Assembly (NCBI GenBank): GCA_046563655.1
Contig: CM102283.1
Location: 9,114,001-9,178,000 of the forward strand
DNA length: 64,000 nt
Reading direction: 5' to 3'
Source: Yuukianura sp. NJ FZ-2021
Lineage: Eukaryota
In this document: in pieces, positions 5,301 to 61,665 of the stretch
How the letters are laid out: each line of letters begins with the position of its first letter
Position numbering within the stretch: position 1 is the first letter of the stretch
Made by a program: the position numbers and the translations under genes
Notes under the pieces: generated by a model
Seen by the model: only the letters and a program-made list of their open reading frames with translations
What the model was told of the DNA's origin: nothing
Database searches by the model: none

Positions 5301-6272
5301 AATTAATAAAAAAAAGTTAGGAAATATGACAGAGGGAACAAAAGAAGCACGACAGACACACTTCCTTACTTCCAAAAAACGAAAAAGTCATAAATCAAAT
5401 TCTGAAATGAACCAATTATGACAAAGTGACAACAATTAAGACACAATACAAGTCAACTTTGACAACAATACGTTAGTAAAAAAAAACTATGCCACTAATA
5501 AAAAGTTCAATGTTGGAATCAATGCCACGCAGTTCGAAAGGAGGTTAAACGTTGACGAATGTTCAAAAATTTAAAAAAAATCGCCCGAGAATGTCAGGAA
5601 ACCAAAATCGCTTCACAATTCTAAATTACAACCAAAATGACGAATTTTCATAAAAATTGGTTCTTTTTCTCGGTTTCTCAATTCCAGCCCGACTTGAGAT
5701 ATTTTTTTGATGTCCAACATTTTAATATTTCTGGATCCGATTTAAGCACGCGTGAGAGCAAAAGCATTTCTTTAAAACGTACTTTTGATTTCATGTTTAA
5801 ATGACACTTGATGCACTTTAACTTTTGTTCGTTTGAAGAGGAAGTTAAACAAAACACTTTGAATCAAGTGCACCACTCAGATTTTCACACCTCAACAACC
5901 AATCAAACAAAGTTCAACACCTTTGACACAGTTTTAACCATAGTTCATGAACTTCTTAAACTTCAACAATAGAAAACGGTTTTGCATTTTACAAAAGTTC
6001 AAAATTACAAACTAAATTGAATTTCAGCAATGACAAAGCCAAGTTTTTTTTATGTTTTGCTCTGGTTTCCTGTTTCTCAAGCCCTTACACGAAATTTCAA
6101 CTAAGGAAAGGGAAATTTGTAATTATTGTTGAGGATGCCATAAATCTTAATGGCTCAACACTGTCTCATGTTCAACTGACTTTATGACCTGCATTGTTGT
6201 GGTTTGTTATAAAACTATAACTATAAAATTTGAAATTTTATAAATTTCAAAATTTTCAAAAAAAGTTCTTAC

Positions 6273-6659
6273 CTTGAGTGGTTTGTCCAATTCTAAAGCT
6301 CCATTGAACAGTTTCGTGACATCATTGGAAATGGCATTTTCCTCGGCCGTTGCCCTCACAAAAACGGAGTTTTTTGAAACTCTTTTGATCAAAATGTTTC
6401 CACTGTCGTCCATTTTGATTTTGATTCCATGTCCAATGTGTCTCAAAATATCTTCAGTTTTGCTATCTCTCATTGGATTTTCAAATCCATTGAGTCCAAT
6501 CCGAAATCCATCAAATCCATCATCAGATCCATTCACTGTTAAAACTGGAGCACGCGCATAAGCTTTAGCTACACGCCGATTTCTTTCGAAAACTATAACT
6601 TTTGCCCAGATTTCATCATCAATCTGCTCCCATTTGTCCAGAACTTCTTGAATGTGATC
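6273..6659 (-). CDS. exp: Expansion/Rebuf-family gene, Smad MH2-like domain exon (DHIQEVLDKWEQIDDEIWAKVIVFERNRRVAKAYARAPVLTVNGS...KPLK)
   Basis: 387 nt (129 codons) between tttcag and AAG|gtaaga; sequence is characteristic of the Expansion N-alpha-MH2 domain. Confidence 0.93.
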
Positions 6660-9600
6660 CTGAAATAAAAAAAAATAAACAGTGAATTTCGAAATTTCAA
6701 AACATGAAAAATCCTTTTCGCTCAATTTCATAAATTTTTGTGCTTTGCGTAATTGAAATACGTTGTGACTCGTGCGGCAGAATTTTTTAGTGTCATTGAA
6801 TCATTTCAAGGCAAAAAGAAATGATTAAGTTCTTAAAAAATTAATTCATAATCGCCTACACAGGAACATTTTGGTGAAAAGTCACAATGACTTTCAGTAA
6901 TTTTTCAACAAAATCTCTTAATTTGCCTATATTTGGTTCTTATTGTTATTTTTTAGGCGTAACTTATTTTACAAAATGGTGTCATTTTTAAAATTAAGTG
7001 AATCTTTTGCTAGTGAGGGTGGAGGTTGATTGGAATGACTAGATTACAAACTTTTTTTTTCAGACTTTTGGTGCTTTTGGGCAAGGAAGATTAACTTTGA
7101 ATAGAAAATAGCATTTAAGCCAAGGCGAAAAGGAAGAATTAAATGTGCAATTGAATTTCATGGAGGCGGAGTATGTGAGCTGGTAATTCAAATTGTCCTA
7201 TTCATGGAATTATGCAATGCCAACAATCCTTTGATTGTCAATTGTGACATAGGACGATGTCCCCCTGTCATCAATCTCGGTCACATCGGGACATGAGAAC
7301 TGTCACGAGGACACACATTAGATTCAAAACTCAAAATTTTTCAAAATTCGGTTCAAATTCTACTGAAGTTAACGAATTTTGAGAAATTTTGGCGTAAACT
7401 CTAATAAATCAAAAATGTAAACTTTTTTGTAGCCCAAAAAGTTACAAGTCCTATTTTTTTGGCGAAGGTGATACTCTGGAGCTCATTTTTAAAATTTAAA
7501 ATTTTCTGAGTTTATGATGGAAGATTTGTTGAAGTAAATTTTATTGCTACCAGAAATCAAATGTTTCAACACTCCCGCTAATTTCGACCTGCAAGTTGCT
7601 TCCGTTAAGCCTTATAAAGTCTATAGAAACACAATAGAAAGTCACAATTAAAGTTGAGCGAGATAATAACATCAGATTCAACTCCAATTTCTTTTGTAAT
7701 GATTTCTACTCTACTTATTTTCCGAGACGGCCAAGTTACGCTACGTTCCCAAAAAATCCACTGTACTAGTTCTCAGCACAAATCGCAATTCACCCTCTCA
7801 GTCATCTACAGGCTTAAAATTTTATGCATTCTGATGCATTCATGTCAAAAACGTCAAAAAAAACATTCTCAAAAAAGCATTTTCAAAAAACGAACATTTT
7901 TTGAACACACGGATGTACAACATTCAAACTTTTTTCTTTAGTATAGTCTCCGAGCAATGAGCAAATGCATTTGCAAAATTGCGAAATTCATCGCATTTGT
8001 GTTTTTTTTTGTTTTGGAGCGAAATTTTTGATTTCTCGTTAAAAGTGTCCGCTGTCATTAAAATTCCTGCACTTTATTGTTCATTTTAAATAAAAATTTA
8101 CATGGTTTCGTTAAATCTTGAAATCGTCGTTGTAATTTAGGTCCTTGGACAACAAAAATCTCAAAATGTAAATGATTTGCGCAAGTGCAGAAAAGGAATG
8201 TAGGCGTCCATTACATCTTTAGAATTGTAAAAGATGATGTGAGTCTATCATCTTTACCAACAGGAGAGAGAATGATGTTTTAAAGCAATTAAAGTTTAAG
8301 CAAAAGTGAAATTCCAATTTAATTATAAAGTACGGATCATGATTAAGATTTGTAATTATTTGTTACTGGTGCCTACTGTTTTTGTAATTGGCAAATGCAA
8401 AAAACTGTTCTGCACATGTGCAACCGCAGTCACTAGGAATACGGTGCTGCCAAATTTCCAACTCAGCATTTGCACTCTACGACTTTTATCTTTTCCTAAT
8501 TTTCTCCCCGTTGTTGATTATCCAACTTTGGATTCGCTTTCCTGCGTCTCCCGCTCACTCAACCTTTGCAAATTCCATTGATAAATGTGCACAACTGTGC
8601 AGGAGTTAAATTGAAAGAGAAAAGACCGCCGAACAAAAAATTAAATAGCGTTCAATAGTCCATAGTTGCCAAAATACAAGTAACAATTAGCAACACTAAA
8701 CCTCAAACGTCATCTTTGCAACTTGCAAAATTTTGCCAAAAAATTCGCAACTTGTTGGTTTAAACATAAAAATTTAGTTTCAGCAAATTTGTAATTGCAA
8801 CTCAGCTGGTTAGCTTCAAAGCAAATTATGTATTCAACGCAAATGCACTTTTGAGGGACACAAAAGTTTTAAGAGCAAGCAGCGCTAAACTTCAAAAAAT
8901 GTTGGAAACTACCGCAAATTGGACATAAAAAATCACGCATGCGTTGAAATCCAAATTCGTCTCATTAACCAAAAACGTATTTGCAAATAAACAGAAGCCT
9001 CATTGTCGTAAATTCACAAATTTCAAACCCGTTTGCTCGTTTTTACAAAAAAGGAGAGAAAAATAGCCCAAAGCTCAAATTGCAAAAAGTGACAACACTG
9101 TCTATAAAAAAAATTCCCCAAATTTAATTAGCGGAAAATTCTTTCAGTACACCGCCGATGCTGTGAAATACTCCAATTTTTTAAAATGTAAAAACCGCCC
9201 TTTGTCAAAAATTACCAAAAATTTGTCAATTTTGGGGGTAAATTTTAAATTGGCGAGGTTAAGAGTGTCATAATACAGAAAATTGAGTCTGTTATTATTG
9301 ACGGCAGTCTGACCCAATTTTACTCCAATTTGTAACTTACCCAAAACACACCAAATTATTTCATGAAAACGCTTAAAAGTTGGGCCAATTTCTGACCTAG
9401 GCAATAACTTAGAGCAATTTAGTGTCGTTACATGAGTTTGTGTTTGTAAGTGTCAAAGGTTATGGCGGAAGAGGTTGTGCAGTTGTCAAATTGTCATTAA
9501 CTGAGAACTCGTTAAGGAAAATTACAACGTGGTTGCACGCATGCGTGTCATTGGACGTGTCACATGGCTTGGACTCACGCCGTGAAATAACATGGAGGAG

Positions 9601-27596: not shown

Positions 27597-28189
27597 CTGA
27601 AACAAAAATGAAAGTTTAGCCTAAAACTGCAAAAAGTGTTTTTTTAATCAAGGAAGATAAATCAATTTCTAAAAAGTTAATTGTACTCTGGTCAGCTATT
27701 ATTTATGTGTGGTCAATTGATGTCCATCGGACACGGTCATTGGCTCTGCTTAATTGCTGTGAATCTTAGAGGTGTAAATGAACTGAGAGAGGCGTAGGAT
27801 TGATTGAAAAGTCATTTGAGTATGAGGATTAAGTGGTATATGAAGATTAGATTAATATGAGAGTGTGTCCTCTCCTTAATACTTAATTAACTCCTCAGAA
27901 CTAACACCTCGGAGAAACTGTGCTCCTTCAAGTGGCCACTTTCATATCAAAATAATAAAGAATCTATTCAAAAGTAAGCCTAAAGTGTCGCACTGCCACT
28001 TTCAAAACATTTTCAATCTGAGATTATCCTGGCTTAAGGGCTACACTTATGGATTTTCCTTGAATAAGCTCAAAACTGTATACTATAAAAGTTTCCATTA
28101 AGCCGCAATCATCCGCTAAAAATTTCAAAATAATCTAATTTAGGTGTCAATGAAGTCAATTGGCCAATCAAAAACTAGTTTTTTGGCTC

Positions 28190-28688
28190 ACGACCACTTA
28201 CAACTCTTCCAACCACCTACAACTTTTCCGACCACCTACAAAAATTCTCCGACCACTACAACTTTTCCGACCACCTACAAATTCTCCGACCACTACAACT
28301 TTTCCGACCACCTACAAATTCTCCGACCACTACAACTTTTCCGACCACCTACAAATTCTCCGACCACTACAACTTTTCCGACCACCTACAAATTCTCCAA
28401 CCACTACAACTTTTCCGACCACCTACAAATTCTCCAACCACTACAACTTTTCCGACCACCTACAAATTCTCCGACCACCTACAAATTCTCTGACCACCTA
28501 CAAATTCTCCCACCACTACAACTTTTCCGACCACCTACAAATTCTCCAACCCCCTACAAATTCTCCAACCACCTACAAATTCTCCCACCACTACAACTTT
28601 TCCGATCACTACAACTTTTCCGACCACCTACAAATTCTCCGACCATCTACAAATTCTCCGACTACTACAACTTTTCCGACCACCTACA
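28190..28688. repeat. Minisatellite, 37-bp unit made of 19-bp and 18-bp subunits (CCGACCACCTACAAATTCT + CCGACCACTACAACTTTT)
   Basis: Unit starts at 28267, 28304, 28341 and 28378 (period 37); subunit order becomes irregular after about 28470. Confidence 0.95.
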
Positions 28689-31600
28689 CCCGCGTTTCAT
28701 GGTGTAACAAACAATGCGTTTTAAGTGGGGTTTGGACTAAATGTGAAAAAAATTCGTTTGAAAGGCCCCGCCCTTCCTTCATTTCCAAAAAGTTCAAAAA
28801 CCAGAGTTCAATACCATGCAAATTTTTTGTGTTTCTGCAAAAGTACAAAGTAACAAGGTTCAAAAAGAATGAGTTTAGAAGGGTTGCGCAAGGGCGACCC
28901 CCGTGGCAGTGCCCTTGAATCCCCTTGTTCCTGCGTAGGTTCTGCTTTGTACCAAATCAAGCTGTTCCTCTTGAAAAGTTGAGTTAGTAATTAAATCAGA
29001 AGTGAAGGGCTCCCTAATAGCCACCTTGCGCAAAAAGAGTGAAGGGCCTCAACTGTACCTCAAAATTACTAATTACCAAAAAATCAAAAAGAAACAAGAA
29101 ATTGCATTGCTACAACCAAAATTTGGCAGTACTACTGCCAGTAACTTTTAAGTTGGTGGAGGTTAAGTTTTAAAGTAACGTAAAGTGGCTACTCTAAGCT
29201 AATTGTTTCACATAACATGTTATCACACCCATCCTTTACAGTAAAACATAACCATAAAGTACATCATCCCAACCTACCCAATGAGAGGATATCATAAAGT
29301 TGTTGCAAAAATGCAATTGTTGCAAAAACGTTTTTGCAAATCTGGTTTACCCTGATTGTTAATTGAACGACAGGCTCCTTGGTCTATTTGATTTGCAGAG
29401 ACGTTTGCCGCTCTTTCAAAGTTCAGTGACAACAGTCTCAAAATTACAGCTTTCAAAAAATGCTCGAACTTTTAACAAAAACTCAAGAAATTTTATGCTT
29501 TTTACAAACTACTTCTAACCATGAACTCGATAGAAAACAAGAATCAAACTTTTGGTAAAAATCAAATGATAATTAAATTACTTTAAAAAAGTGCTTTTAG
29601 CACCTAAATAGCAGACTAAAAACATTAATTGGATAAATTGCACATTGGAAGGGGACCTACTAATGAGCAGATTAGCGGATCAGGGACATCTTCTCCATTT
29701 TTACGATTGTTTTGTTACAGCTTCACAGCATTTGAAATTTGCGCATCTCCATTTCTACCAATGCTGTTCAATTTATGCAAACTCATGAACTCGTTATGAA
29801 AACTGCAATTCTGTTCAGGAACACTTTTGAAAAATATCCTTCAATCAATTAAGCTAATCCTTGTCCAAGTGCATGCATAGAATGCAAGACAATGGAGATG
29901 CGCAAACTGTAAAAAAAAGTGTATTGGCATAGAGTATAAAAAATAGAGTTCTGCGCAGCGGCCGGAGACCATGGGAAGACAAAGAGGTAAACATGAAAAA
30001 TGAGCCAATTGTCATCACATTCAGATTCAAAATGTTATTTTTAGCATTTGGGAAAAGTTCATGTCCTCTCACAATGGAAATTCTAAATTTGGAATACAAA
30101 GTCGTGAAAAATTTAAGAAGATTCGCCTTCATGTGATACGCGATCTCACAATGACACAAGTGAAAAGAAAATATTTGAGTTTTGACTATTTTTGCTTTCA
30201 CTTTCACACTGTTTTGCTTCAGGGGTGTTCCCGCGTTTCCTTTCAAGAATTATTTTCGCTCCTCCTTTGAAAAGTTCGAATTTAAAAGAAAGCGCGACAC
30301 CCAAATGACAAAAAAATTTATATATCACGATTGTTCCGTTTTAATTAAAATCCTCCAAAATTAGACATCTTAATGAAAATACAATTATAACAAAATGTCA
30401 TCTGTTTTCAACTTTTGCTGATTCGACATTCCCGAAAAGGAATTTGGTGAAAATCAAAATTCGCAATCACAACTTTTGTTGTTGATTTCGAAATCCAAAT
30501 TCTCTAAATAACTTCTTAGCGCCCACTTTCCAAAGATCTTTTACGGTACTAGGACTTCACATAGCATCTTTACGGTAACTCCTAAGACGTCCAATGTCAA
30601 AACTCAACTTTTGAAGAACATTGAAAAAAATCTCGTCACTGACTCGACAAGAAAGTGGCACCTCTCTAAATCTTCAAAATTTAAAACGGTACAAGCACTA
30701 CACTGGCGTCCGCTGGGGCTGCGCCGAAACGGAATATCGTCCAAATTCAAACTTTTTTAAACGGCAGAACAATGGGGAGCAAAATGGCATAAATGGAGTT
30801 TCCCGCGATAATTTTAAACTTTCACATTTAGTGGATCAAGTGTACAAGTTGTTGAGGATGTCTAATGAGCCCCACTTTGTCTAGCTCTAACAATGTTAGA
30901 CATTAGAGTAAATTAATAACAATGACGAGGCAGGGCTAAAAAAGAGATTTGAAACCCATGTTGGGATGGGTGCTGCTTAAAACGGGATTTGGCTTACAAA
31001 AGTTTACTAACAAAGGAAGGTCTAGAACACCACGCAACAATCAATAACAATACAAAAACATAATGTAAAAAATAGCCTTCACAATTAGATCTGATCTTGA
31101 GCCGAATCAGTCGCAATATCTTTGACGTAAGTAGTTCGATCGTGAAATTCAAATCAAAAGGAGAGTCGAGAGGGTGATAATGACTTACGCAACACTTTTC
31201 ATTAGTATAGAAGGAAAAAGTCATTTGGAATGAAATCGACTTTTTGGCATTTCGAATCAAATGGATTTTTTGACATTTCGAATAAAATGGACTTTTTCTT
31301 ATTTTGTAATTTCCAACCTCCCGCCAACACTTTTTGTATGCAGGTTGGTACATTTCAAAATTTTAACTGCGAGAATCGAATTGGGCACTGACACGTTTTG
31401 GCTCCGCCAGTTCAATTTAACTTTTCGTTCCACTCAACGCTCTATTGCTAATTGGAATGGACGTACTCACATGCGCACTGCTAAAAATTTTTTTCTAATT
31501 TTCATTTTCAATTGCCCCCAAAGGCAAAACTTTGTTCAAAAGTCAAAATTTGCAAAATCTATTTACTCGTTTTCCAAATAAGGAGCTCAGATTAGTCTCT

Positions 31601-46799: not shown

Positions 46800-47983
46800 A
46801 TGGGATTCTTTCGCGAAGTGGGGAAACTGAGTATACTTGTAGCCATTGCAATAATTGTGCCGCTTTTTATAGTCCATCCGATTGTGAAACATTTCTTTCC
46901 GGATTTGATTCCTACCAGCAGTACTTCCGTTCCGTTACCCAATTTAAACGAAATCATATCTCATCAACTTCAGCTACAAGATCTTCAGAGAGAGGTAAAT
47001 CATGGTTTAGGTCCTTCTGAGGTTCATTTTTACATGGAACTTTGTGATATCTAGTTAGAGAGTTACCGGTCACCTGAAGGTCGTGAGGCCATTTCGAAGC
47101 TCATCCAGGACATTCTTATAATAAATGACAGTCTGTCCAAAGGTAGCGATCGACATGCTACAGCAGACCAATTCGTTGAAGAACTCGACGATAATTTGGT
47201 GATTTGGATGTTAATTGATTAATTAATCACATTCACAAGTCAACTTTTTATAATAAGATTTGCCTTCTCCACTTTTTTACAGTATTCTAAGCTGTACTCT
47301 CTGGAAAATCGAGTTGTATCTTTAACAAACCCGGCTGTAATAGAAGGTCTGGATACCGTTTTTGAAGCCTCACGAGAACTCGGAATCGTTTTGGATAACA
47401 GTGAAGAACTGGAAGAGGACGACGAGAAGATGTTGACCTCGGAACAAAATTGTTTCAAGGCTTTGAATAGTCTAGCACAGTCTCTCCTTGAGGCTAACAA
47501 GTTGACTGACATGGTAAGTTACATAAACCTTCGGTTTCGAATTTTACTAAATATTAAAGAAATATTTCTTGATTATTTAGATTACCAAATTGTACAAAGA
47601 GGTGGAAGCTCGACGCGAGAGTGACATGTCTACGGAAGATCTGAACGTATCTGAGCAAGTAGACTACTACGACAAAGAATCCACTCGATTAACAGAACAA
47701 ATGGATACGATTGTCCAGGAGAGCCACAAAGACTTAAGCAGAGCAAAAGATTTTATTTCAAGTACTACTGCCACAATTCAGAGTTATTTCGACAAGCTCA
47801 AATCCGAATTCGATCTAGTAAGTTTAAACTCAATTCTTGTTTTTTTTTTAATGATTAACGAGTTTATGCTTTCAGAGTCTAATCACCAACCAAGAATTAC
47901 ATGCCACGTACATTTTGGAACGCATTCGGCCACAAGATGGAGACGACGAAGAGATTGAATCTTCCAGAAAAGAGGAACTATAA
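46800..47983 (+). CDS. Uncharacterised 304-aa acidic, probably helical protein with N-terminal hydrophobic segment and C-terminal KEEL; exons 46800-46994, 47055-47198, 47283-47513, 47581-47817, 47876-47983
   Basis: Five exons joined by four short (58-84 nt) phase-0 GT-AG introns give one open frame MGFFREVGKLSILVAIAIIVPLFIVHPIV...EEIESSRKEEL*. Confidence 0.85.
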
Positions 47984-48297
47984 GCGTTTAAGCTAATAAT
48001 CAACCGATCAAGATTAAAATCGACAATAGCACGATTTGCAACAATGGTAGTGTCACTTGTATTTCATCATCGTCACGTAAATACTTGATACTTGAAAATA
48101 TTTAGTAAGTTTCAACTAAATTGTCAAGTATCAAGTATGAAATTGAGACAACAAGGTACGTGTACCACGGTATCAAATCGTTTGTGTCACGTAAGCTTCA
48201 GCCTGTCGTTGAAAATTTGAAGTTGTTTACGTAAGATAAAAATATTGTGATAGTCATTTGTTTTTTCCCATAAGTTTTTAAAGTTGCATCGATTAGC

Positions 48298-48304
48298 TAT
48301 AAAA
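48298..48304 (+). promoter_or_regulatory. Candidate TATA box of the amine oxidase gene
   Basis: TATAAAA about 125 nt upstream of ATG 48425; the AT-rich context makes a chance match possible. Confidence 0.4.
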
Positions 48305-48424
48305 TTAAAGTTCTGATACAGAACTTGAATCAAGTGTATTACTAACTCATCCACTAAAATTAACTTGAATTACACTAAAAAACTTTATATTGAAAATTAA
48401 AAATTGAATTGGTTTTTATTGAAA

Positions 48425-50425
48425 ATGGACTTTAGGGCTCTGGCACTTCCATGGCTAGGACTTCTCCTATTGGCTGGAATCTCAATTCAGCCTACAACTG
48501 CCGTTCCATCACCATTCGACGACCTTAATCCAGAAGAAATTCAACGTGTCGTTCAAATTATCCGCGCTTCAGGATTATTTGAACATGACGCTGACTTTCC
48601 TGTAATTCGAATGCAAGAACCGCCAAAAGCTGATTGGCTCGCCGGGACAGCCAATAACCAGCGTCTTGCTCATGCCTCCGTGTTTGAATACGGTTCAAAC
48701 ATTGTAAGTGATGTTGTCGTTGACCTTAACGTCAATCAAATAGTCGGTGACATTTTTCGTCACGACGACGGAGTCGGTCCGGTTCTGCTCCTCAGTGAAC
48801 TCGTACTGGGTAAATCCATTATCCGAAACGATCCACAGTGGCAAGCAGCCATGGCCAGTCGAAATATCCGGCCGGAGGACACGACCATTGACGTTTGGCT
48901 CCCAGGAACACTTCAAGGCCATGAAGAAGGCCCTGGAAAAAGAATCGTTCGTGGCGTTACTTACTACAAAGATGGAATTTCTAAATTTCATCATTACAAT
49001 GTCGTTGAAGGAGTCGTTGTCATGGTTGACCTTGTCCAAAAAGCCGTCGTAGAATTCTGGGACGACGGGGCTCCTCCTTTAACTTCAGGATTTGAAGAAC
49101 TTCCAGATTTTACTTCCAAACCAATCCTGCTTCCACTGACGATTGAACAGCCCGAGGGAACGTCAATTGCCGTTGATGGTCAACAAATCAGCTGGTACAA
49201 GTGGCGTATGCGGTACAGCATTGACCCGGTCTATGGCCTCCAGCTATACCATGTCACCTACAATGCAGACTGTGAAGATCGATCTGTTTTGTACAAGTTG
49301 TCAATTGGTGAGATGTTTGTTCCTTATGGAGGGTCTGGAAGAGGATGGCGCTGGCGGTCTGCTTTTGACGCTGGAGAATACGGATTTGGCAAAATGGTAA
49401 GTCCACTGAAGATTGGAATTGACCTTCCAGAAAATTCGATCCTGTTTTCATGTTACATTGCTTCTGAAAACGGCGGAGAACCTGCACTGATGCCAGCATG
49501 TGCTGGAGCCTATGAACGCGATGCTGGAATCATGTACAGACATCAAACATGGAACTTCGGTGACACTGACGACGGTAACTCGGCTCGTCGAGGACGTCAA
49601 TTGGTCCTGACCCTGATGACTACAATTTCAAACTACGATTACACTTTTGACTACGTTTTTCATATGGACGGAGTAATCGAGGTCAAGTCAAGACTTACCG
49701 GGATAGTTCTGGCCAAAGGAGTTACCAAGGCAACAAACGATGATGACGAACAAGAATGTCTCCTGGACTGCACTTCACTTCTGAATGACTACCTAGTTGG
49801 ACCACCCCATCAACATTTCTTTAGTTACCGAATTGACTTAGATGTTGACGGAGTTAACAATTACGTTGCCGAAGTTGACGTGACCTCTGACCCCGTGACT
49901 GACCCTGACCCGTATCCATGGGACCACGGAATGTTCTCTCCCAAGAAGACTTTGATTCCAACTGAAACATACCGAGACCACAACCTTCAGCAACATCGTT
50001 CTTGGCACGTTCTGAATGCCAACAGCAGCAGACGTAATCTTTTTGGCTCACCGCGCGGTTACGCTCTCAAACCGGGAGATGCTTTGGCCTTTACGTACTT
50101 GACAGACGAGGCTCCTGTCATGGGCAGAGTCCAGTTTGTGAAGCATCCATTTTGGGCCACACGCTACCACGATGACGAACAACATCCGACAAGCAAATAT
50201 CCGCGTACAGGCAAACCTATGGAAGGAGTACCACAGTTTATAAAAGATCAACAATCGCTGGAAAATGAAGACTCCGTTTTATGGTACACTTACGGTATAA
50301 CGCATACTACAAGACCGGAAGAATGGCCAATCATGAACGTTCACTATGCGACTGGCTTTTCTCTAGTTCCGTATAACTTTTACTCTCAAAATTCAGAAAT
50401 GGCGCTGAAAGACCGGTGCCCGTAG
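48425..50425 (+). CDS. Secreted copper-containing (TPQ) primary amine oxidase, 666 aa, intronless CDS
   Basis: Signal-peptide-like MDFRALALPWLGLLLLAGISIQPTTA; catalytic Asp motif AFDAGEYG (GAC 49367-49369); TPQ consensus TISNYDY (Tyr TAC 49634-49636); Cu ligands HQH (49808-49816) and GITH (50303-50305); RPEEWPIM. AATAAA at 50483 and 50505. Confidence 0.96.
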   Translation: MDFRALALPWLGLLLLAGISIQPTTAVPSPFDDLNPEEIQRVVQIIRASGLFEHDADFPVIRMQEPPKADWLAGTANNQRLAHASVFEYGSNIVSDVVVDLNVNQIVGDIFRHDDGVGPVLLLSELVLGKSIIRNDPQWQAAMASRNIRPEDTTIDVWLPGTLQGHEEGPGKRIVRGVTYYKDGISKFHHYNVVEGVVVMVDLVQKAVVEFWDDGAPPLTSGFEELPDFTSKPILLPLTIEQPEGTSIAVDGQQISWYKWRMRYSIDPVYGLQLYHVTYNADCEDRSVLYKLSIGEMFVPYGGSGRGWRWRSAFDAGEYGFGKMVSPLKIGIDLPENSILFSCYIASENGGEPALMPACAGAYERDAGIMYRHQTWNFGDTDDGNSARRGRQLVLTLMTTISNYDYTFDYVFHMDGVIEVKSRLTGIVLAKGVTKATNDDDEQECLLDCTSLLNDYLVGPPHQHFFSYRIDLDVDGVNNYVAEVDVTSDPVTDPDPYPWDHGMFSPKKTLIPTETYRDHNLQQHRSWHVLNANSSRRNLFGSPRGYALKPGDALAFTYLTDEAPVMGRVQFVKHPFWATRYHDDEQHPTSKYPRTGKPMEGVPQFIKDQQSLENEDSVLWYTYGITHTTRPEEWPIMNVHYATGFSLVPYNFYSQNSEMALKDRCP

Positions 50426-51758
50426 GTCTGTGGCGGGAAAAGCCGAAAGTTTAAATTTAACTGGAGCAACTACGACATACGAAATAAAACTGCTCACATG
50501 TCGAAATAAACGCATAATATGTAGGTCATAGTTTAATTTAATTATAAGTTAAATGCAGTTGAAATTTCAGTTTCAGTTGAAGTTTGAAATCCAGCCAGAT
50601 AAGCAACGATTGCAGCATTTGCAGCAACAAACTCATTTCTATCAGCCAATCCAAGCACATCCTTCTCAAGTTTCTTTCCTCCTCAAATTTGAATTGCACA
50701 GCCAATCAAAATCAACCATGGTTAGTTTAATCAGTAATGTTTTGACGATTGCATTTCAGATTAAAGATTGCATTAGTTAGAACAATTAACTGTTTACACT
50801 CGCAGCGATTCAGCGACACTTTTTATCGTGTCTCCCAATTTCATACAGCATTAAAAAAATGTTGCGGTTTGGTGATTGCTTTAATGATACGCTTAGTCCG
50901 TAACTAATTAGCCAATAACTTTTATAACTTACGATTAGTTGGAATTGGTTATTTTTGCCATTTGACTTTGGCAAAGACTAGTTTATTGCTTTACATTAGG
51001 TTTACTTTAGTTTGTAAAAATACATGGGGGAATTTGCACTAGGGAGAAGCCCAGGGAAAAAGTCATATCGAAAATAGTCGAGAAGGGAGTCGAATTCAAT
51101 TGAATTCTCACACAAAGTAAGTACGGAGAGGCTGCTCTTCTGTGAATTACTATCAAAGTTCAGGAATATCACCCACTTTACACCTCTTCTGTGGTTTGCT
51201 GTCTGACCTACGTCAGCCGTCGTCGTCGTGGTGGTCGTCACCATCGTCTTCTTCGTCGTATTTTGATCAGTTAACGGTCAACGGACTGCTGCTTAGTTTG
51301 GTATGTTAAAATATTTAAAAAGTAGAGGAGTAAGTTAAAATTAGGTCATACTGAATTTGACTCTCAAATTAACCGATTTCCGGCAGAAAAAGAGAAGGAA
51401 CATCAACATAAGTTTCATCGAAAAAGTTACACGGAATTATTGCCCTGTTTTTAGGTCATACAATCTCAATCTGGACACATTGAGTATGGCCAACTAAAAG
51501 AGACATACGGGTAATACGGATTCCGGCGACTGGACTGGACAAGGTGGAGGAGAAAGTGGACGGCTACGGAAAATCAGCTGAGTGTACCGTTATTTGGTGA
51601 GGAAATTCCTGTTAACAGATTACTGTTGTCTGTGGTCATTTGGACGTTCAGGGGTAAGATCCTGAATTATCATTCGAGGTCATTACCTTAGACAAAGAAT
51701 CACGCAAAAGCATAACGGTATTTTTTAATTTTCTAGATCCGGTTGCTGTTTATCAGTC

Positions 51759-54335
51759 ATGTCGCCCAGCGTGAGAGAAGTCATTCTGCACTGCCAAAAA
51801 CAAATTAAGAAGGACATATCCGAGGACAGGGTCAGAAATCTTTGTTTTTAACTTAACAAAAGTATAACACTTAAGTAGGTCAACAGCTGGCTAATATGAC
51901 CTTGACCTTGATATCTTGTTGCATGTCTTTAGATGTTACATTACATTGGAAGACTGAACCGACTTCATATTGGAACCAGTGATTTAATTGAGACTAGAAT
52001 TGGACGGACAATAAATCAGCTCAGCCGTGAAGCTGGAGTGGTAGGGGAAAAGGCTTATGCTTTGGTTGCAAAGTGGAAGTCTCTCGTTGAAGCTGAAAGA
52101 TCAGATTCTTCTTCCGCAGATGAGGCTCCTAAGAAATCCAAGGCGAGAGACGTTTCAAGTGACGACGAGGAAGATGATCATGACGACCGTCGAAAGCGAC
52201 CTTCCAAGTCAACAAAAAGCCGAAACCGCTCTGATGACGACGAAGACGACCAAGAGGAGCGACGACGGTCGGCCAAGAAGAAATCCAAAAGCCGAAACTA
52301 CTCAGACGACGAACGGCGACAAGAAAGGCATAAGTCACACAAATCCTCAAAAAGTCGGAAATTGTCGGATTCGGAAGACGATGATGAGGAACCGGTACGT
52401 TCTCCTTCTCCAAAGAAATCCAAGGCTCATCATCCAGTTTCTGAAGATGATGATGACGATGACGACGGGAGCAGCGATGGATCCGAATCACCTCCACGAA
52501 GACCAGACCCTATCCAGGATTCGGATTCAGATGAAGACGAAACTGCTCTCTTTATCGACCACCATGAACCCGAGCCAGAACCGGAACCAGAACCAGAGCC
52601 CGAACGAAAACCGATTATTGAAAAGTTAAAGCCAATTAAAAAGGAAAAAGACGTTGTTCCTGAATCACCGCGGAAACGACGCAGCGATTCGAAAGAGCGT
52701 GACGAAAAAGTGAAAAAACCAAAAGTGGAGATCAAAGAAGAAAAAACGACACCCGAGAAGAAACCGGATCCGCATGAATGTCTCCGACCAAAACTCGCAC
52801 CTCGTCTTAACGTCGAAATCGACTCAACTTCGGGCCTCAATTTTTCTGATGTCCTGAGCGGTTTGGATGCAAAACGACTAAAAAAATCACCAAAGAAAGT
52901 GTCACCTTCTAAGAAAAGTACATCAGCTGCCACTCCCACTCCAGCCGTTAACGGTACTCCAGAAAAGAACCAGCATCACAAGGGAACAGCATCAGCATCA
53001 ACATCATCAAGCAGTTCGGCTAAAGAAAAAGACAAAAGTTCTTCTGCTAAAGAAAAAGACAAAGATTCTTCTGCAAAAGACAAAGACAAAGATTCGTCTG
53101 CAAAACGTATTGCCAAAGTATCTCCGTTTGCCTACACTCCGTCTCCATCTCGTCCTCCACCGTCCACTTCCACTTCCAAGAAGCAAGTTCCAATTGAACC
53201 TGCGAAGTTACTTGAAGATTTAGCTGCTACTGAAGATCGTTATTGGGAAGACAGTCAAGTAACGCTGAACGGTAGCTACGGTCATGCCGGAGGCGAGGAT
53301 GCTTTGGCCACGATGATGTCCAGCCGAAATCAACGAACTAAAGTTTACTCTGGAGTTAAGACTGGCACTATTACCAAAATCCCAACACTTTTTAAAATGT
53401 GTCTCGGAGTTATTCAGGACAATATTGGAATTCTGGAAGATACTGGCGGAGTGCCATTTGAAATTCTGGAGCCGGTTTTGCGTCGTATCACGGTCAATCA
53501 GCTGATGCATGTTGAGAGTTACAATCCTTACCTCATAGGTCAGTTTTTATCAAAGTACTTTGTGTATTAGATGAAGATTGTTGGATTTTGTGCTAAATGA
53601 TTCTGAATTGTTTTTAGCAAGTATTTTGTATACTTGCAGAATCCACGGATGATATCTGGAAGTATCATTGTAGCCAAAACTTTCGAGGTAAACAGCCAGA
53701 TGACGAGGAAGGCGAAACTTGGCGAGACCTTTACTATGTAAGCTTTCTCTTCACAAAAATTTTTATAATGAGAAAGTGTGACTGAAGTGTGAGGTTTTTC
53801 TTAATTTCAGAGATGTGTCGATGAGAGAACGCAACGCTTCGCATCCTTGACCTCAAAATTGAAAACGAAATTGGAAGATGCTGCTCCTGTTCGCAAGGCT
53901 AAACTGGCTTACGTCGAAGCCAATTCTAAGGGCACGAAATTTAGTAAATCTAAGGCTGACACTGTAAGTTAAAAAACAAAGTTACTCCATTTTTGTCATT
54001 TTCAATTGAAAATGTAATGTTGACGTTGTGTTGTTCAGATTAAGACTGGAATGTCATCGCTGAAAACACGAGAAGAGAAGGGTCCTGTACGAAGTCATGG
54101 ATCCAGTGCCAGTTCTGGTGGTGGTGGCAACAACAACACCAACATTATCATTGAACCAGCCGCTGTAATTATTACGGGAAATGGAAAATCTCGATCCGGG
54201 GGAGGAGGGGGAGAAAGATCATCGTCGTCTTCGGCTGTCGCTGCAAGGGAAGCTTATGCCGCTGCCAAGAAACCAAGAAAAGCTCCATTGATGCAGAAAA
54301 CGTTGAAGAGCATGAAGACACTGATGCGTCGCTAA
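51759..54335 (+). CDS. EloA: Elongin A (TCEB3-like transcription elongation factor), about 741 aa; exons 51759-51830, 51933-53538, 53640-53737, 53811-53963, 54039-54335
   Basis: TFIIS-N-like N-terminus (LIETRIGRTINQL...ALVAKWK), long charged linker, RTKVYSG followed by BC-box IPTLFKMCLGVI, GGVPFEILEPVL, WKYHC...TWRDLY and C-terminal KAPLMQKTLK. All junctions are GT-AG with consistent phases; AATAAA at 54918. Confidence 0.93.
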
Positions 54336-55493: not shown

Positions 55494-56635
55494 TTAGTGG
55501 TAAGAATAAGTAAGGTGATCCTCGGGTGACATGCGACTGGACAACCCTTGACCTTGACCTTGACCTTGACCTTGATTATGTTTGGACTGTGATTGATGTC
55601 CAGAACTTGACTTTGGACTTAAGATGGGGTCTAGAATTCTGGAGTAGCTGGACTCTTTGTCCAGAAGTAACCTTGGCGAGTAGTGATTGGCCTGTTGCTG
55701 TTGTGTCACCGAGGTCACGTGGTGACTGCTTGGACTTGTAATGGCACTCTTCGGACTGAAATCCATCAGTTTCTGACCTTCCAGCATCTCGTATGGTTTC
55801 CTCGCAGGGGTCAAGCCATGTTGACCTTGGTGTTCCTGAATGCTGCCAGTATGATGCTTGTTGATGCTGTTGCCACGACTCAAGTTTGATTGAAGTTCGT
55901 TCACTCCGGGTTGTCCCGAGTGATACCGAGTGCCGTAAGTCGGTTCTTGAGTACTTGATGGCTGGAGTGGGATTCGAAACCGCGGCGGTGGTGGTGGATC
56001 GCCACGGTTTTCGTTGACACTGTTCGTTCTTGTTGTGCCGGACTCCGATCCGCTGCTGGTGTCAATCAGTTTTTTTTCGGCGGGATCCATCAGTCCATGT
56101 TTTCTCAAAATTTCGGAAGTTTCGTAATAACTTGTTTTGGCGTCTCTTAGGGCAGCTTTGGGGTCAACATCAACAAATCCTTTGGAAGATTCATACTGCG
56201 CAAGTATTCTACTCTTGTGACCTTGAGATGCCTCACGGTCACGGTCACGGTCACTTCTGGAGGAACAGTGGTGGTGACTGGAGTCGCTTTTGTCGCGGTG
56301 GTGATGGTGGTGATGGCTATGCCGGTGGTCATGGTCACCACCTTGTGATTTGTCGTAAGTTTTGTGGTAAGAGGATTCGTAAGAAGGTGGACCGGAAAGA
56401 AGCAAACCGGGTTTCCGGCTTTCGTAGATCGGTTCGTAGTTGGTTTCGGTATGGGGCGTGGTCATTTTCTTGGAAGTGGAGGCGGAGTCTAAAAATTTTG
56501 GCGGGTATTCAAATCGTTTTGAAGTGTAAACGGACTGGGATCGGCTCAAATTCGTTCTCGGTAGAACCGGAGATGGTTTGACGTAAAGCGAGCGTGTTCC
56601 GCCGTAAATCGGTTCGAGTCGTTCACAAAGTAAAC
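55494..56635 (-). CDS. bib: big brain-type aquaporin, terminal exon (long cytoplasmic tail)
   Basis: Acceptor ttttcag at 56636, phase 1 matches the upstream exon. Encodes EPIYGGTRSLY...LPRTNLSRSQSVY, which I recognise from Big brain tails, then His-rich and QG-repeat tracts; stop at 55494. Confidence 0.82.
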
Positions 56636-56833
56636 CTGAAAAAAATTATCAAAATAATTTAATGAAAATTCTTGAATTTTAACTGGATTTGAAAAGTTAA
56701 CTTAAAAAAAACTTGCAATCAAATCGTAATGCAAAATTGCAACAAAATCAAAATTTCCGCACGCAATTGGTGGTTTGTGTTGAACAAAATACGTCGTGTC
56801 GCCAATTTTAATTTTTCTTTTTGTTGACTCGCC

Positions 56834-57472: not shown

Positions 57473-58451
57473 GACTCGCCAAACCATTTTTTGTAAATTG
57501 TATAAAACAGAAAATTCTTTGCAAAAAAGAAGTGAAGAAAAGCTCGAACTTGTAAAAAGCCAAAATATTTTTGAAAAAAAAATCTGTGTTTTTTCAATAG
57601 GCATTTATCTTACATTCGTAATTCGTTTGCTAAAGTTTTCCGTCTTCTCTTTGCCAATTTGTAGCTTTTAAAATGAAAATGTTGAAAACATTTTTACAGA
57701 AACGCCTTTTTTTTTAATACAGGATTTAAAATTATAAAATTGGCAATGGAGTTTTAAAAATTTCAGACTGCAGTTTGACGTCGCCATTTTGGTTCTGGCC
57801 TTTGTTCAACCAAATCCTGCGTTTTGACGGAGCTCAACGACCGGAGCCAGTGAAACACTTTGTTCAAACGGCTTGCTACAAAAACTGTTTCAAAGAACCA
57901 AAATCAGTTTCCAAATTTTTTTTTCAGTTTTGCATTCCTTTTGTGACAATTTTGCATACTGCTTGATTTTCAAATTTTAAAATCCTTTGATTTTGCACAC
58001 CTATACTCTCAGTTTTCATTCAACTTCAAGTAATTTACCCCAAAATTCTCAACTTTGCACAGTGTTTTTATAATTTAGAAAATCGCACAAAACTTTACTG
58101 TTTTTTGTGTAAGTTTTATTGAAAGCTAGTTTGGTCAGAAGTTAATTTCACTTTCTAGCAAAACACAGAAAAACAGAAAGCACTTTGACCACTTTTTGTG
58201 TGATTTTACAGTGAGTTGCATGACCTTCTGCCCTTATGAACAGTTTCATAACCTGTTTTACATTTCAATTCTCATAACATTAGAGAAGTGGGCGGCTAAT
58301 TGCATCCAGAAACTTTCACTTTTACTTTCAATCATTCTCAATCATCTTTTCTTTACAATTCAAGAAGCCATTTGGCACATGCGCAGAAAATGGTCATGAA
58401 CTTCAAAAATGAAGCTAAAACTTAACAATTTAAGATAAAAATTGAACTTAC

Positions 58452-58695
58452 GATCAGGCGTGGTGACAGGGAGTTCTGTAGGGGGGACATCGAGTGAATC
58501 TCCATCTGACCCTTGACCTCTGTCCTTGCCTCCCTTGCTTGACTTCCGTTTCAACACATACTTGTGGAAATATGCTGCCAGTAGTCCTCCTATGATTGGT
58601 CCAAGCCAAAACACCCAGTGTTTGGGCCACTTGTTCATCACGAAGGCGGGGCCAAGCGATCGGACTGGATTCAGCCCAGCTCCAGTGCATGGAAG
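58452..58695 (-). CDS. bib: big brain-type aquaporin, exon with loop E and TM6 ([40 protein letters not shown])
   Basis: MIP-family signature GxxxNPxRSLGP...HWVFWxGP; acceptor gacag, donor C|gtaagt; 244 nt, phase 0-1. Confidence 0.92.
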
Positions 58696-58970
58696 CTGTC
58701 AGTCAACAAAACCAAAACAGATTCAGTAAAAAAAAGTTTTTTTTTCAAAACAAAGTTAGAAAATTTTAACATCTTGTGCAACTTGAACGTTGAACGTATT
58801 TTTATCATTTAAAAGATGAAAATTGTCTGTTTATGGCTAAAGTTTGAATAATCTCCCAATTTCTCGCAACACCGAATCAGTTTCAATTTTAACTAACTTA
58901 AATAATATTTTAAACTTTTTTTTTTATTAAAATTTTTACTTTCAAAATTCTTTTTTTTTTTCGAACTTAC

Positions 58971-59151
58971 AGCAACAAGACTTGCGGCCAGTAAAACGGA
59001 TGAAGTAGGGACGCAATTTTTCGGATCCGACATGTATGTTAACGTGAGTACAAAGGTCAAGATGAGTTCCAGTCCAAAGGCTTGAACAGATTCAACGTGA
59101 GATGCAATCGACGTCGCTCCAAGCGTTCCTTGATATCCGGGAACAGTCAAT
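58971..59151 (-). CDS. bib: big brain-type aquaporin, exon with loop C and TM4-TM5 (LTVPGYQGTLGAT...QAFGLELILTFVL...); upstream exons not found in window
   Basis: Acceptor tttacag, donor GCT|gtaagt; MIP TM4 motif ExxxTF; TVPGYQG resembles Big brain. Confidence 0.88.
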
Positions 59152-59590
59152 CTGTAAACAAAGAAAACATTTTCGAAAATCAAAAGATGATAGACGAAAA
59201 AATGAGAAAGTCAAAACTGTTAAAGAAACTGGAACTAGTGTTTGATGTTCATTTTATCAAAAAAACTTTGAAAGTTGGTGGACTTTAATAAAAGTCTGAA
59301 CTAAACAACCATTTGAACAACTGAACAAACACGACGAAACCCACCAACATGAAAACTTTTCATAACAAATGGAATAAAGATTTCAAAATATGAAAATTTG
59401 AATTTCAAATAAGTATTTTCGAAAATGTAGTTTATATCTACGTATTATTGGTTTTTATTGGTACAAAATATTAAGTCTTAACATTGCATTGCGTCTTGCG
59501 TTTGAAAGTTATAAAATTACTAAAATAAACAAAACTTAAAATTACAGGATTTCGAAATTTTTGTGTTTTTTTTTCTAAATCGTCTAAACT

Positions 59591-61665
59591 TCATTCTGTT
59601 TCGTTTTCAACTTTTCCGTCATCCGGAATCAGGTCAATGGCATTTTCTGGCGTAGAGATTTGTACAAGATCCATAGTTGGTCCATAGTGTCTCTTATGTC
59701 GCACATGCGTCGGAGGGGGTGGTCCCCCCGGGGGAAATGAACTCTGAAACGGCTGAAACACAGTGGCTGCCGGTTTGATAAAGGAACCAATCAGGTCCTT
59801 GGCCATCATAAGTACTCCCTGTTGCCACTGCGTCATGAACGAAGGGCTCTTAGGGGGGCCCTTGTAGTAGCCACTGGCGACATCCGAGTGGTACTTGGGA
59901 TAGTTGCTAACATCTACTGGTTTCCCGCCAAAAACTTCTGTTTGTGAAGATGTAAATGTTGATGGGGAGGGTCCAAGGGCCCACTGGGAGGGGTACTTCG
60001 GACTTCCGGTGAAAGCATAAGTTGGCAACGGAGACTGCGGAAGTTCGTTGTAGCTTGGATGTGAAAATCCTGAAGGCGGGCCACCGGAGGGTCCGGAGGG
60101 CGGGAATTGCTGAGAATTTGAAAATTGTGGCGGCGGGTTTGAAAATTGTGGAGACGAATTTGAAAATGGCGGGGAAGAGCCTGATACTTGGAAGGGTGAA
60201 GCCGATACTGTTTCAATTATTGGAAAAGTGCTTGGAATTGGACTTTGACCTTGCTGACCTTGACCCGGTTGAATTTGACCTTGTTGACCTTGACCTTGTT
60301 GTGATGTAGTTGGAGTCTGAGGAGATGGAAATGGACTATAAATTTCACTTGATGTTACCGTTTGAGTTTGAGCATGAGCTGGAAATCCGAAACTGCCGCC
60401 AGAGGGAAACTGCTGAGACGTCGGCTGATATTTCGATCCGCCGGGTTGTGTCGGATACGGATTCGGTTTTGAAGCAACCGGTTTTCCACGAAACGATTCC
60501 ACGACGGTATCCATTAGATTGTACGGAAATGGAAGAACCTTTGGTCCTCGTATCGGTTTTTTGTATGGAATTGACGTGAGAACCTTTTGGGGTTGACCGT
60601 CCGGACTAAATTGTGGCCCTTGACCTTGACTTTGCAGAGCTTCTTGGTATCGATTGTAAGCTTCTAAATGTCTTTGGTACTCTGCGTATTCAGCATCCGA
60701 TGGTCCTGGAGCAGGCGCAGGCGCAGAAGACAAACCGACCTGCGCAGAGGGGCCGACCTGCGGATTTTGACCGACCTGCGAAGTTGGTCCCATGATTTGA
60801 ATTGCTGGTGTTATTACTGGTTGTTGCTGCTGCTGCGGATAAGGTTGCTGCTGCTCAACTGGATTCAAAAATGCTGCTTGGATGTAGTGTCCAGGCGGCG
60901 ACACTGGAACTTGTACTGGCTGGGCAGGTTGCTGAAACTGCTGCTGTTGCTGCGGAGGTTGCTGAAACTGCTGTTGCTGTTGCTGCGGAGGTTGCTGAAA
61001 CTCCGGTTGCTGTTGCTGCACAGGCTGACTGTCGGCAGGTTTCGACTCTTGGTTTCTCTCAATCCTTATTTGAGGTTGTTGCACAGGCGCCGCTGCAGGG
61101 CCGGTCATCGGTGTGATGGAGTACGACGCTTGCTGATTATTTTGCAACAACGCATGCGTCGTTTGTGGTCCGAGTTGAATTTGATTAAAAAGATCATCAG
61201 ATCCGGCCGTTAAATCTTTGAATTTGAAGAAACTGTCGTCTGCTGCTCCAAAACTTGATACTGGGCTTTGGGGAACAAAGTCTGTCCAAGCTGCTGGAAG
61301 ATCTTGCTTCTTCTGAGGATACTGGCGAATCTTGGGGTAGGGCCGGTGGGGCCTTTGGTGGGGCTGGTTTTGGTGGGACCTTTGGTGGGGCTCGTTTTGG
61401 TGGGGCTGGGGTGCACTTCGTTGGTTACCTTGCCGATCCGGAACATTTCCAGCAAATTGAGCCGATACGCACTGAAACACAAAAAATAAAAATTCAATAA
61501 AATTTTCCCGCCGGAGTTAAAATCCAAGCCGAGAAGTACTGCCAGCACATGCTTCTAAAGCAGAAAATGCTGGAAGTACTGCAAGTACAAAATGCTGGAA
61601 GTACTGTGCATGCTTACCAGAAGAACTGATGAAAGCAGGAACAGTAGTGTTAAGTGGTGGGCCAT
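59591..61665 (-). CDS. Secreted Gln/Pro/Ser-rich low-complexity protein, 642 aa; exons 61618-61665 and 59591-61471
   Basis: Exon 1 MAHHLTLLFLLSSVLL (donor CTG|gtaagc) joins in phase 0 to CVSA-QFAG (acceptor tttcag), forming a signal peptide; 1881-nt open second exon; initiator TCAGTC at 61708-61713. Confidence 0.88.

Follow-up and report, generated by a model that had tools for sequence, protein, structure and literature searches.

A copper amine oxidase gene of probable bacterial origin integrated between spliced host genes of a springtail

The oxidase gene and its surroundings

We analysed a 64,000 nt stretch of the genome of Yuukianura sp. NJ FZ-2021 (GenBank assembly GCA_046563655.1, contig CM102283.1, positions 9,114,001 to 9,178,000 of the forward strand), hereafter called the window. 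It carries an intronless gene for a copper amine oxidase, which lies between two spliced genes of animal type. We put the joint probability that this gene is of bacterial origin, that it is genuinely integrated in the springtail genome and that it is maintained by selection at about 0.85.

The oxidase is encoded by a single open reading frame (ORF) that runs uninterrupted from ATG to stop over 2001 nt, stop codon included, and specifies 666 amino acids. The ATG stands in the context ttattgaaaATGG (aaaATGG), with A at -3 and G at +4, and an in-frame stop is located 8 codons 5' of it. The Pfam model PF01179 (Cu_amine_oxid) matched residues 239-657 with an E value of 1.1e-106 and 357.7 bits, compared with a cut-off of 27, and the match spanned profile positions 2-405 of 407. 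Scores for the Pfam N2/N3 models were slightly below threshold (24.0 versus 27.4, 20.3 versus 21 and 20.0 versus 22.6); the corresponding D2/D3 region was covered by the end-to-end phmmer alignment to the Escherichia coli and Arthrobacter enzymes (residues 24-659). When PDB sequences were searched with phmmer, E. coli amine oxidase was aligned to residues 27-659 with an E value of 3e-86.

The translation contains EMFVPYG, WRSAFDAGEYGFG, TISNYDY, HQHFFSYRIDLDVDGVNN and THTTRPEEWPIM. Going by solved homologues and the copper amine oxidase literature, we take Tyr300 to be the partner of the cofactor, Asp315 the catalytic base, Tyr404 the precursor of the topaquinone (TPQ) cofactor, and His462, His464 and His627 the three copper ligands. 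The metal-site aspartates D471, D473 and D616 were aligned to those of the E. coli enzyme. N403, Y404, D405, H462, H464 and H627 were invariant in all nine aligned sequences, as were D471, D473 and D475 in the alignment of relatives. The ORF is far beyond chance and, judged by its residues, is a complete TPQ copper amine oxidase of the class EC 1.4.3.21/22, with every catalytic residue. The hydrophobic core of its predicted signal peptide comprises residues 5-19.

Table 1. Features of the window, with the oxidase gene first, its flanking genes next and other features last.
Feature	Position	Strand	Remarks
Copper amine oxidase ORF	48425..50425	+	Intronless
Predicted signal peptide MDFRALALPWLGLLLLAGISIQPTTA/VP	48425..48502	+	Residues 1-26; cleavage after TTA; read by eye
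FVPYG, conserved Tyr300	49316..49330	+	Aligned to VPYG of E. coli amine oxidase
SAFDAGEYG, Asp315	49358..49384	+	Aligned to the Asp of E. coli YLDSGDYG
TISNYDY, Tyr404	49622..49642	+	T-x-x-N-Y-(D/E) consensus, T400-I-S-N403-Y404-D405
HQH (His462, His464), then RIDLDVDG with metal-site aspartates	49808..49852	+	Aligned to E. coli HQH...LDLDVDG
GITHTTRPEEWPIM, His627	50294..50335	+	Aligned to the third His of the E. coli enzyme (TTH motif)
Cys665 in clade-specific C-terminal tail SQNSEMALKDRCP	50417..50419	+	
TATAAA, candidate TATA box	48298..48303	+	127 nt before the oxidase ATG; motif match only
Two AATAAA polyadenylation-type signals (50483 and 50505)	50483..50510	+	58 and 80 nt past the stop; motif matches only
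Upstream host gene	46800..47983	+	5 exons; 4 GT-AG introns (60, 84, 67 and 58 nt); clean 304-aa ORF
Downstream host gene, Elongin A	51759..54335	+	TFIIS-N and Elongin_A domains; 5 exons; 741 aa; splices cleanly; 4 GT-AG introns (102, 101, 73 and 75 nt)
MH2-domain exon of host 'expansion'-like gene	6270..6659	-	Pfam MH2, E 2.7e-24
MH2 exon regions, far apart	1819-2373 and 6207-6800	-	
ORFs from a tandem repeat unit (...PTNSPTTTTFPTTYKFSDHYNFSDHLQIL...)	28144-28918		Probably satellite or minisatellite within an intron
His/Ser-rich ORF	55494-56645	-	383 aa; no Pfam family
Aquaporin (MIP) exons	58360-59210	-	
Gln/Pro-rich ORF	59591-61516	-	641 aa; no Pfam family

The stop codon of the upstream gene is 441 bp from the oxidase ATG, and the oxidase stop is 1333 bp from the Elongin A ATG. 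The 304-aa upstream protein has a coiled coil and an N-terminal hydrophobic segment, and no significant family was found for it in a Pfam scan. Around the oxidase ORF we found neither a polyA tract nor a target-site duplication. The repeats beside it were short two-copy families (14-28 nt, 77-88% identity), and no transposon signature was seen among them.

Physical linkage of the oxidase to the host genes was observed in assembled contigs, which were aligned to the region from five DNA runs of two studies that contain the stretch. Runs X1, X2 and X4 represent a single sample, possibly that from which the assembly was made, and X5 belongs to the second study and bears a different organism code. 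In X4 a 1361-bp contig (record 17) covers 47766-49117; on it, the two final exons of the upstream gene are joined through the intergenic DNA to the first 693 nt of the oxidase. Record 19 of the same run (50740-52288) reaches into Elongin A, and records of X1 and X2 cross the oxidase ATG (48126-48463). In X5 the oxidase was recovered in pieces only, at about 92-99% identity (37 differences in 458 nt, 6 in 303 and 4 in 388). The oxidase gene is integrated between two spliced host genes and is not a contaminant. Its composition is also that of the host: relative synonymous codon usage correlated with that of pooled host exons at r 0.77, compared with -0.23 to +0.31 for nine bacterial homologues, and its G+C content at third codon positions (GC3) was 0.43, compared with 0.30-0.48 in host exons and mostly 0.60-0.82 in the bacterial homologues.

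A joint from 47959 to 52442 with 29 other letters between, present in X1, X2 and X4, was considered as an allele lacking the oxidase. We read it instead as an unrelated locus, since the match on either side is limited to some 18-20 nt (47942, 52462), within acidic-repeat coding sequence.

A preliminary description of this DNA had proposed an uninterrupted 2001-nt coding sequence (CDS) here, with a signal peptide, intact catalytic elements (the Asp of FDAGEYG, TxxNYD, HQH and a distal His), a candidate TATA box, AATAAA signals, and flanking genes of four introns each at about 440 bp and 1.3 kb. The coordinates proved exact, all catalytic elements were present and aligned with those of E. coli, the signal peptide was seen by eye, the TATA box and AATAAA signals were recovered as motif matches, and the introns and distances agreed. 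Its argument that the location among host genes speaks against a contaminant is in line with the contigs that bridge 47766-49117 and reach Elongin A and with the presence of the gene in the second study; the link to the upstream gene, which it had suggested looking for in reads, was found in record 17 of X4.

The other genes of the window are of animal type, namely the two MH2 exons, the aquaporin exons and Elongin A. For the MH2 exon at 6270-6659, identity reached 92% with Orchesella cincta, 89% with Folsomia candida and no more than 79% with any other named arthropod among 120 matches listed. These identities indicate that the window belongs to a springtail (Collembola) that is neither O. 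cincta nor F. candida, which narrows the arthropod neighbourhood of the preliminary description. A search with an Elongin A exon returned 23 proteins; the 14 named ones were all from insects, at about 50% identity over just 11-20% of the query for most.

Some matches to these exons came from other sources. The metagenome proteins P0272, P0296 and P0297 comprise an Elongin A that was 59% identical and MH2 proteins that were 99% and 97% identical, which suggests that environmental metagenomes hold DNA of this or a sister species, like the oxidase relatives P0002 and L081 described below. With the 130-aa MH2 exon, a protein of Clunio marinus (P0295, 961 aa) gave 367 bits at only 69% identity; a single match could not yield so much, and P0295 is presumably either a protein with several stretches of MH2 type or a fused gene model.

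Relatives and phylogenetic position of the oxidase

In a word-indexed protein search, of which 120 matches were listed, the closest proteins were P0001 (47% identity), P0002 (71%, a 374-aa fragment) and P0003-P0007 (41-44%), followed by others at about 37%. All nine organism-named rows among these matches were bacteria. An exhaustive search of 1.84 billion representatives gave 3783 proteins at E <= 0.001, led by P0121 (48%, 613 bits), P0122 (43%, 555 bits) and P0123 (74%, a 264-aa fragment). Below the top matches the score fell from 555 to 388 bits, and full-length identity was never above 48%. P0123 derives from L081, a 2506-bp metagenome contig that encodes the C-terminal 306 residues of an oxidase at 72% identity. 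No named arthropod was present among the 120 best matches of the word-indexed search or the 10 looked up of the 150 best in the exhaustive one; the searches covered a protein collection that includes Folsomia and Orchesella proteins.

In a prokaryotic species collection, relatives were found in metagenome-assembled genomes (MAGs) labelled as Oligoflexia (L001, 42% identity), Deltaproteobacteria (L002, 41%), Pseudomonadota (L038, 41%), Myxococcota (L005, 40%), Bacteriovoracaceae (L036, 40%), Pseudobdellovibrionaceae (L003, 39%) and Planctomycetota (L004, 39%). P0138 and P0271 were annotated as Bdellovibrionota. Around the L001 oxidase gene lie genes of bacterial type, for a phage integrase, a sulfatase, a GNAT protein and VanY. 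When 401 genomes of the same phylum were searched, 13 had a match, none closer than 43%, and the distribution is thus patchy there too. Loci L128, L141 and L148 were tried as context for the branch of P0001 and P0121 and were rejected, being 67-70% identical to the bacterial P0122/P0005 type. In the ESM Atlas the family was merely found again (plant and fungal clusters, 0.96-0.98), a result that by the caveats of the Atlas is not usable for origin.

Within L001 (3199-6899) the oxidase gene starts 6 nt past the sulfatase gene, a spacing that suggests a possible operon. The phage-type integrase lies 3.5 kb upstream, and the gene may therefore be mobile among bacteria too. Two oxidase copies were seen in genome G005.

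The phmmer scores against solved structures were compared for the window protein, P0001 and P0005, in that order. They were 294, 291 and 322 bits for E. coli amine oxidase, 260, 294 and 352 for the Arthrobacter enzyme AGAO, 184, 202 and 259 for the yeast enzyme, 165, 185 and 247 for the pea enzyme, 126, 105 and 126 for human diamine oxidase (DAO), and 96, 107 and 115 for VAP-1. The window protein behaves as one without special affinity to eukaryotic enzymes and resembles a faster-evolving offshoot of a P0005-like bacterial lineage. It did not group with vertebrate AOC1-4, as DAO and VAP-1 were matched at their low scores over the catalytic domain only (residues ~216-663). The preliminary description had read several motifs as being of the TynA/Arthrobacter type, or else of plant or fungal type, rather than of vertebrate AOC type. 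The scores agree with the bacterial reading against the vertebrate one and give no support to the plant or fungal alternative, since pea and yeast rank below the bacterial structures. Within the bacteria the assignment has to be changed: the closest named relatives are MAGs of Oligoflexia/Bdellovibrionota type, not Enterobacteria or Arthrobacter.

A quick maximum likelihood (ML) tree was built under LG+C20+F+G4 with posterior mean site frequencies (PMSF) from 55 rows, comprising the window protein, the spliced L081, 14 of the P proteins, 37 of 78 genome loci and 2 further metagenome loci. Neither tree includes L004 or L036, whose ORFs are split so that a single frame covers just about 400 aa. 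The window protein and L081 were joined with support of 99, and P0001 with P0121 was added to them at 100, on a stem of length 0.68. A clade of 12 rows (100) further contained L001, P0271, L002, P0122, P0006 and P0003-P0005, and one of 18 rows (100) also took in L005, L003, L038, P0007, P0008 and L079.

A careful ML tree of 36 rows gave the same nesting (supports are bootstrap/SH-aLRT, the latter the Shimodaira-Hasegawa-like approximate likelihood ratio test). The window protein and P0002 were sisters (99/93), L081 was next (100/99), and these three formed with P0001 and P0121 a clade of five rows (100/100), which we call springtail-type. This clade was grouped with P0003, P0004 and P0005 (99/97), then within clades of 13 rows (100/100) and 19 rows (100/99). 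Across the trees the springtail-type group had a shared stem of 0.63-0.68, and its two branches are 47% identical. In an approximately unbiased (AU) test, a tree in which the remaining 14 members of the 19-row clade were forced into a clade of their own, with the springtail-type group excluded, was rejected (delta lnL 57.6, p-AU 0.00029). The ML analysis that had been suggested beforehand, run here with bacterial homologues, places the oxidase within a bacterial subclade at 99-100 support.

Changes after transfer, selection and alternative origins

Four cysteines (Cys283, Cys343, Cys359 and Cys665) were found in every springtail-type member that covers the respective column and were absent from the four bacterial sisters aligned; Cys445 and Cys449 were universal in the alignment. 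The four clade-specific cysteines probably form two extra disulfides. A C-terminal extension SQNSE(M/V)...C(P/E) was common to the springtail-type sequences only. Short signal peptides lacking a basic n-region were seen in the window protein and P0001, in contrast to P0122 and P0005. We infer that the added cysteines, the tail and the signal peptide may be adaptations to the eukaryotic secretory pathway. Two residues ahead of the catalytic Asp, the oxidase and its bacterial sisters have Ala and the E. coli enzyme has Tyr; because Ala is common to the bacterial sisters, there is no sign of change after transfer at that site.

This interpretation of the cysteines and the tail depends on what P0001 and P0121 are. 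Both were predicted by prokaryote-style gene calling on short contigs from metagenomes (4099 and 5883 bp), and if they are bacterial they would represent the true donor lineage: the cysteines and the tail would then predate the transfer, the transfer would be younger, and the features would not be eukaryotic adaptations. We consider this unlikely, but it is the alternative that survives best. The signal peptide of P0001, MQFVFVICVIFHLTDA, has no basic n-region, which sets it apart from the bacterial sisters P0122 and P0005, and the P0121 call begins mid-domain at query residue 51 on its 5.9-kb contig, which is what an intron separating off a first exon would produce. The long shared stem fits a single shift of environment. 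It is possible, as a tentative proposal, that the five springtail-type sequences descend instead from one old bacterial-to-animal transfer, which would have founded a secreted, disulfide-stapled and eukaryote-adapted oxidase family across deeply diverged soil animals.

L081 contains a canonical intron of 70 nt (GTAAGG...GAGCAG, positions 128-197 of the contig, phase 0), placed directly before the TPQ consensus M-A-T-T-I-G-N-Y-D-Y. The 1.5 kb of DNA 3' of its gene is AT-rich and without long ORFs. The window gene and P0002 are continuous at the intron site, so that the intron is present in one of the three sequences that cover it. This is most simply explained by gain after transfer, and the intron is probably a gain in the transferred gene. 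Together with the saturated synonymous sites between the window gene and L081, it shows a long residence of the family in eukaryotic genomes.

A transferred gene could also be an unexpressed or decaying relic without function in the animal. In the main text on Folsomia candida, RNA-seq support is given for 466 of 809 foreign genes (57.6%), so that many are without it (PMC5490193). For the oxidase we regard this as improbable, as its 2-kb ORF is intact and all catalytic residues are kept. Nine of the 12 classified read variants in the CDS were synonymous and three nonsynonymous, an excess of silent changes given that synonymous sites make up 22.8% of the CDS (binomial p 0.0002). Over 300 codons compared with the 72%-identical L081, the proportion of nonsynonymous differences (pN, 0.186) was far below that of synonymous ones (pS, 0.786), the synonymous sites being saturated. 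None of the 12 indels listed lay in the CDS, and both flanks had them; a further 50 indels are outside this list. These comparisons indicate purifying selection on the oxidase CDS.

Indel alleles were seen upstream of the ATG (48145-48422). In one allele 48381-48421 is replaced by 9 different letters (X1 and X2, with a loose end in X5), and in another 126 nt are skipped (48146-48271, X2). The region of the promoter and 5' untranslated sequence is thus variable while the CDS is conserved.

Vertical inheritance of an ancient eukaryotic or metazoan oxidase, with introns lost or by way of a retrocopy, and with a bacterial look that stems from poor arthropod sampling, is very improbable. Animal oxidases do occur in cnidarians, molluscs and amphioxus, according to the available text of a recent survey (PMC12058724), the relative L081 has an intron, and the trees are without a eukaryotic outgroup. 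Yet eukaryotic structures scored lower (184, 165, 126 and 96 bits) than bacterial ones (294 and 260), and affinity to them was no greater than that of the bacterial sister P0005 (259, 247, 126 and 115 bits). The protein is nested at 99-100 within one bacterial subclade, from which the AU test rejects its exclusion, and arthropods were missing from the 120 best and the 10 looked-up matches in a collection that holds Folsomia and Orchesella. An intron in one of three sequences fits gain, and the retrocopy marks sought at the ORF, a polyA tract and a target-site duplication, were not found.

Bacterial contamination or an assembly chimera, which an intronless ORF with bacterial nearest relatives in a polymorphic sample with fragmented Logan contigs might suggest, is effectively refuted by the 1361-bp contig that ties host exons to the ORF, the contig reaching Elongin A and the presence of the gene in a second study, by host-like codon usage that is unlike that of bacterial homologues, by the eukaryotic-style signal peptide, start context (A at -3, G at +4) and AATAAA signals, by a closest bacterial protein of only 42-44% identity, far too diverged for a contaminating bacterium, and by the spliceosomal intron of L081.

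Several points weigh against the conclusion that a bacterial gene was acquired, secreted and kept by selection. MAG labels can be wrong. The trees contain no fungal, plant or animal oxidases and are rooted by midpoint and the ranks of PDB scores rather than by an outgroup, and the group used in the AU test was named only after the tree had been seen. The bacterial or eukaryotic nature of P0003-P0005 and of P0001 and P0121 is judged from signal peptides, cysteines and contig sizes only. Secretion is predicted from a signal peptide recognised by eye, and the 12 classified CDS variants are from the best-supported ones listed, of more than 400 across 9 kb.

Elsewhere in the window, positions 1-40000 have 33-35% GC and a persistently negative GC skew. 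The two minus-strand MH2 exon regions of Table 1 lie far apart within this stretch, in an 'expansion'-like gene with very long introns, in contrast to the compact genes at 46-62 kb.

Proposed mechanism and comparison with known systems

Copper amine oxidases convert a primary amine to an aldehyde, ammonia and hydrogen peroxide by means of TPQ. In the springtail enzyme, Tyr404 would turn itself into TPQ in a reaction that uses Cu(II) and O2. A primary amine would form a Schiff base with TPQ, Asp315 would take a proton, and the aldehyde would be released; the cofactor would then be re-oxidised by O2 at the copper ion that His462, His464 and His627 bind, with NH3 and H2O2 as products. Oxidase activity and the use of primary amines as substrates are suggested by analogy with the homologues. 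The signal peptide and the added cysteines suggest that the enzyme acts extracellularly, in the gut lumen, the haemolymph or the cuticle. As for its origin, a springtail ancestor probably acquired the gene horizontally from a bacterium whose subclade is represented today in genomes labelled as Oligoflexia, Bdellovibrionota and Myxococcota. The gene has since come to match the host in codon usage, shows start, signal-peptide and polyA features of eukaryotic type, and is under purifying selection.

The best-scoring solved structures, E. coli TynA (ECAO) and Arthrobacter globiformis AGAO (294 and 260 bits), which represent the periplasmic oxidases of primary amines (tyramine/phenylethylamine) in bacteria, resemble the oxidase in D2-D3-D4 architecture, with end-to-end alignment over residues 27-659, and in the TPQ consensus, the HxH and distal His, the catalytic Asp and the metal-site aspartates. 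Compared with ECAO, the oxidase is about one third identical by eye and is without the D1 domain, the alignment beginning at ECAO residue 92. It differs from both in being encoded by an animal and in its eukaryotic signal peptide, four cysteines and C-terminal tail. The closest named full-length relatives are L001, L002, L003, L005, L038 and P0271 (39-44%). The MAG oxidases and P0003-P0005 are united with the oxidase in the 13- and 19-row clades at 100 and have the motifs AFD(A/V)GEYG and C..x3..C in common with it; the MAG oxidases differ in their dense bacterial gene context, in GC3 (mostly 0.60-0.82) and in lacking the extra cysteines and the SQNSE...C tail. Vertebrate AOC1 (diamine oxidase) and AOC2-4 (VAP-1/SSAO) and the invertebrate CAO-like enzymes have the same catalytic domain and chemistry and are likewise secreted or ectoenzymes, but the vertebrate enzymes are distant from the oxidase (126 and 96 bits, catalytic domain only).

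In a survey from 2025 that covers copper amine oxidases in plants and animals, the animal enzymes of cnidarians, molluscs, amphioxus and vertebrates form a separate clade, and the words arthropod, insect and horizontal are absent from the available text (PMC12058724). Horizontal gene transfer into springtails is well known. According to the main texts, 809 foreign genes make up 2.8% of the genes of Folsomia candida, 39.9% of them bacterial (PMC5490193), and 253 foreign genes were found in Orchesella cincta (PMC4987106); the criteria were the h-index, linkage and phylogeny, and enrichment is reported there for carbohydrate-active enzymes, not amine metabolism (PMC5490193, PMC4987106). The term 'amine oxidase' does not occur in these two main texts, the gene lists being in supplements outside this look. 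The oxidase resembles the catalogued foreign genes in being a bacterial metabolic enzyme that is linked to native genes, intact and host-adapted, and differs in that no Folsomia or Orchesella orthologue was among its best matches listed. In the literature on amine oxidases with horizontal transfer, arthropods or springtails, we found no published description of this gene.

The oxidase adds one horizontally acquired enzyme gene to the documented springtail set. The case is well supported and not surprising in principle: the general picture is unchanged, since horizontal transfer into springtails is already well documented. The support comes from several sides, namely linkage, phylogeny with the AU test, codon adaptation, the intron of a relative and selection. 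A bacterial redox enzyme has here been turned into an animal gene, and the aftermath is visible in host codon usage, the signal peptide, four cysteines, the tail and the intron of one lineage. If the springtail-type sequences do go back to one old transfer, the family would give hexapod relatives a TPQ enzyme that is otherwise not known from insects, and it may have been recruited to a new extracellular role: defending the gut or cuticle by means of peroxide, detoxifying amines in decaying litter, or cross-linking matrix. Among the functions that springtails have gained from microbes, reported so far mainly as carbohydrate degradation and antibiotic synthesis, the gene may represent an addition, namely the oxidation of amines with production of H2O2.

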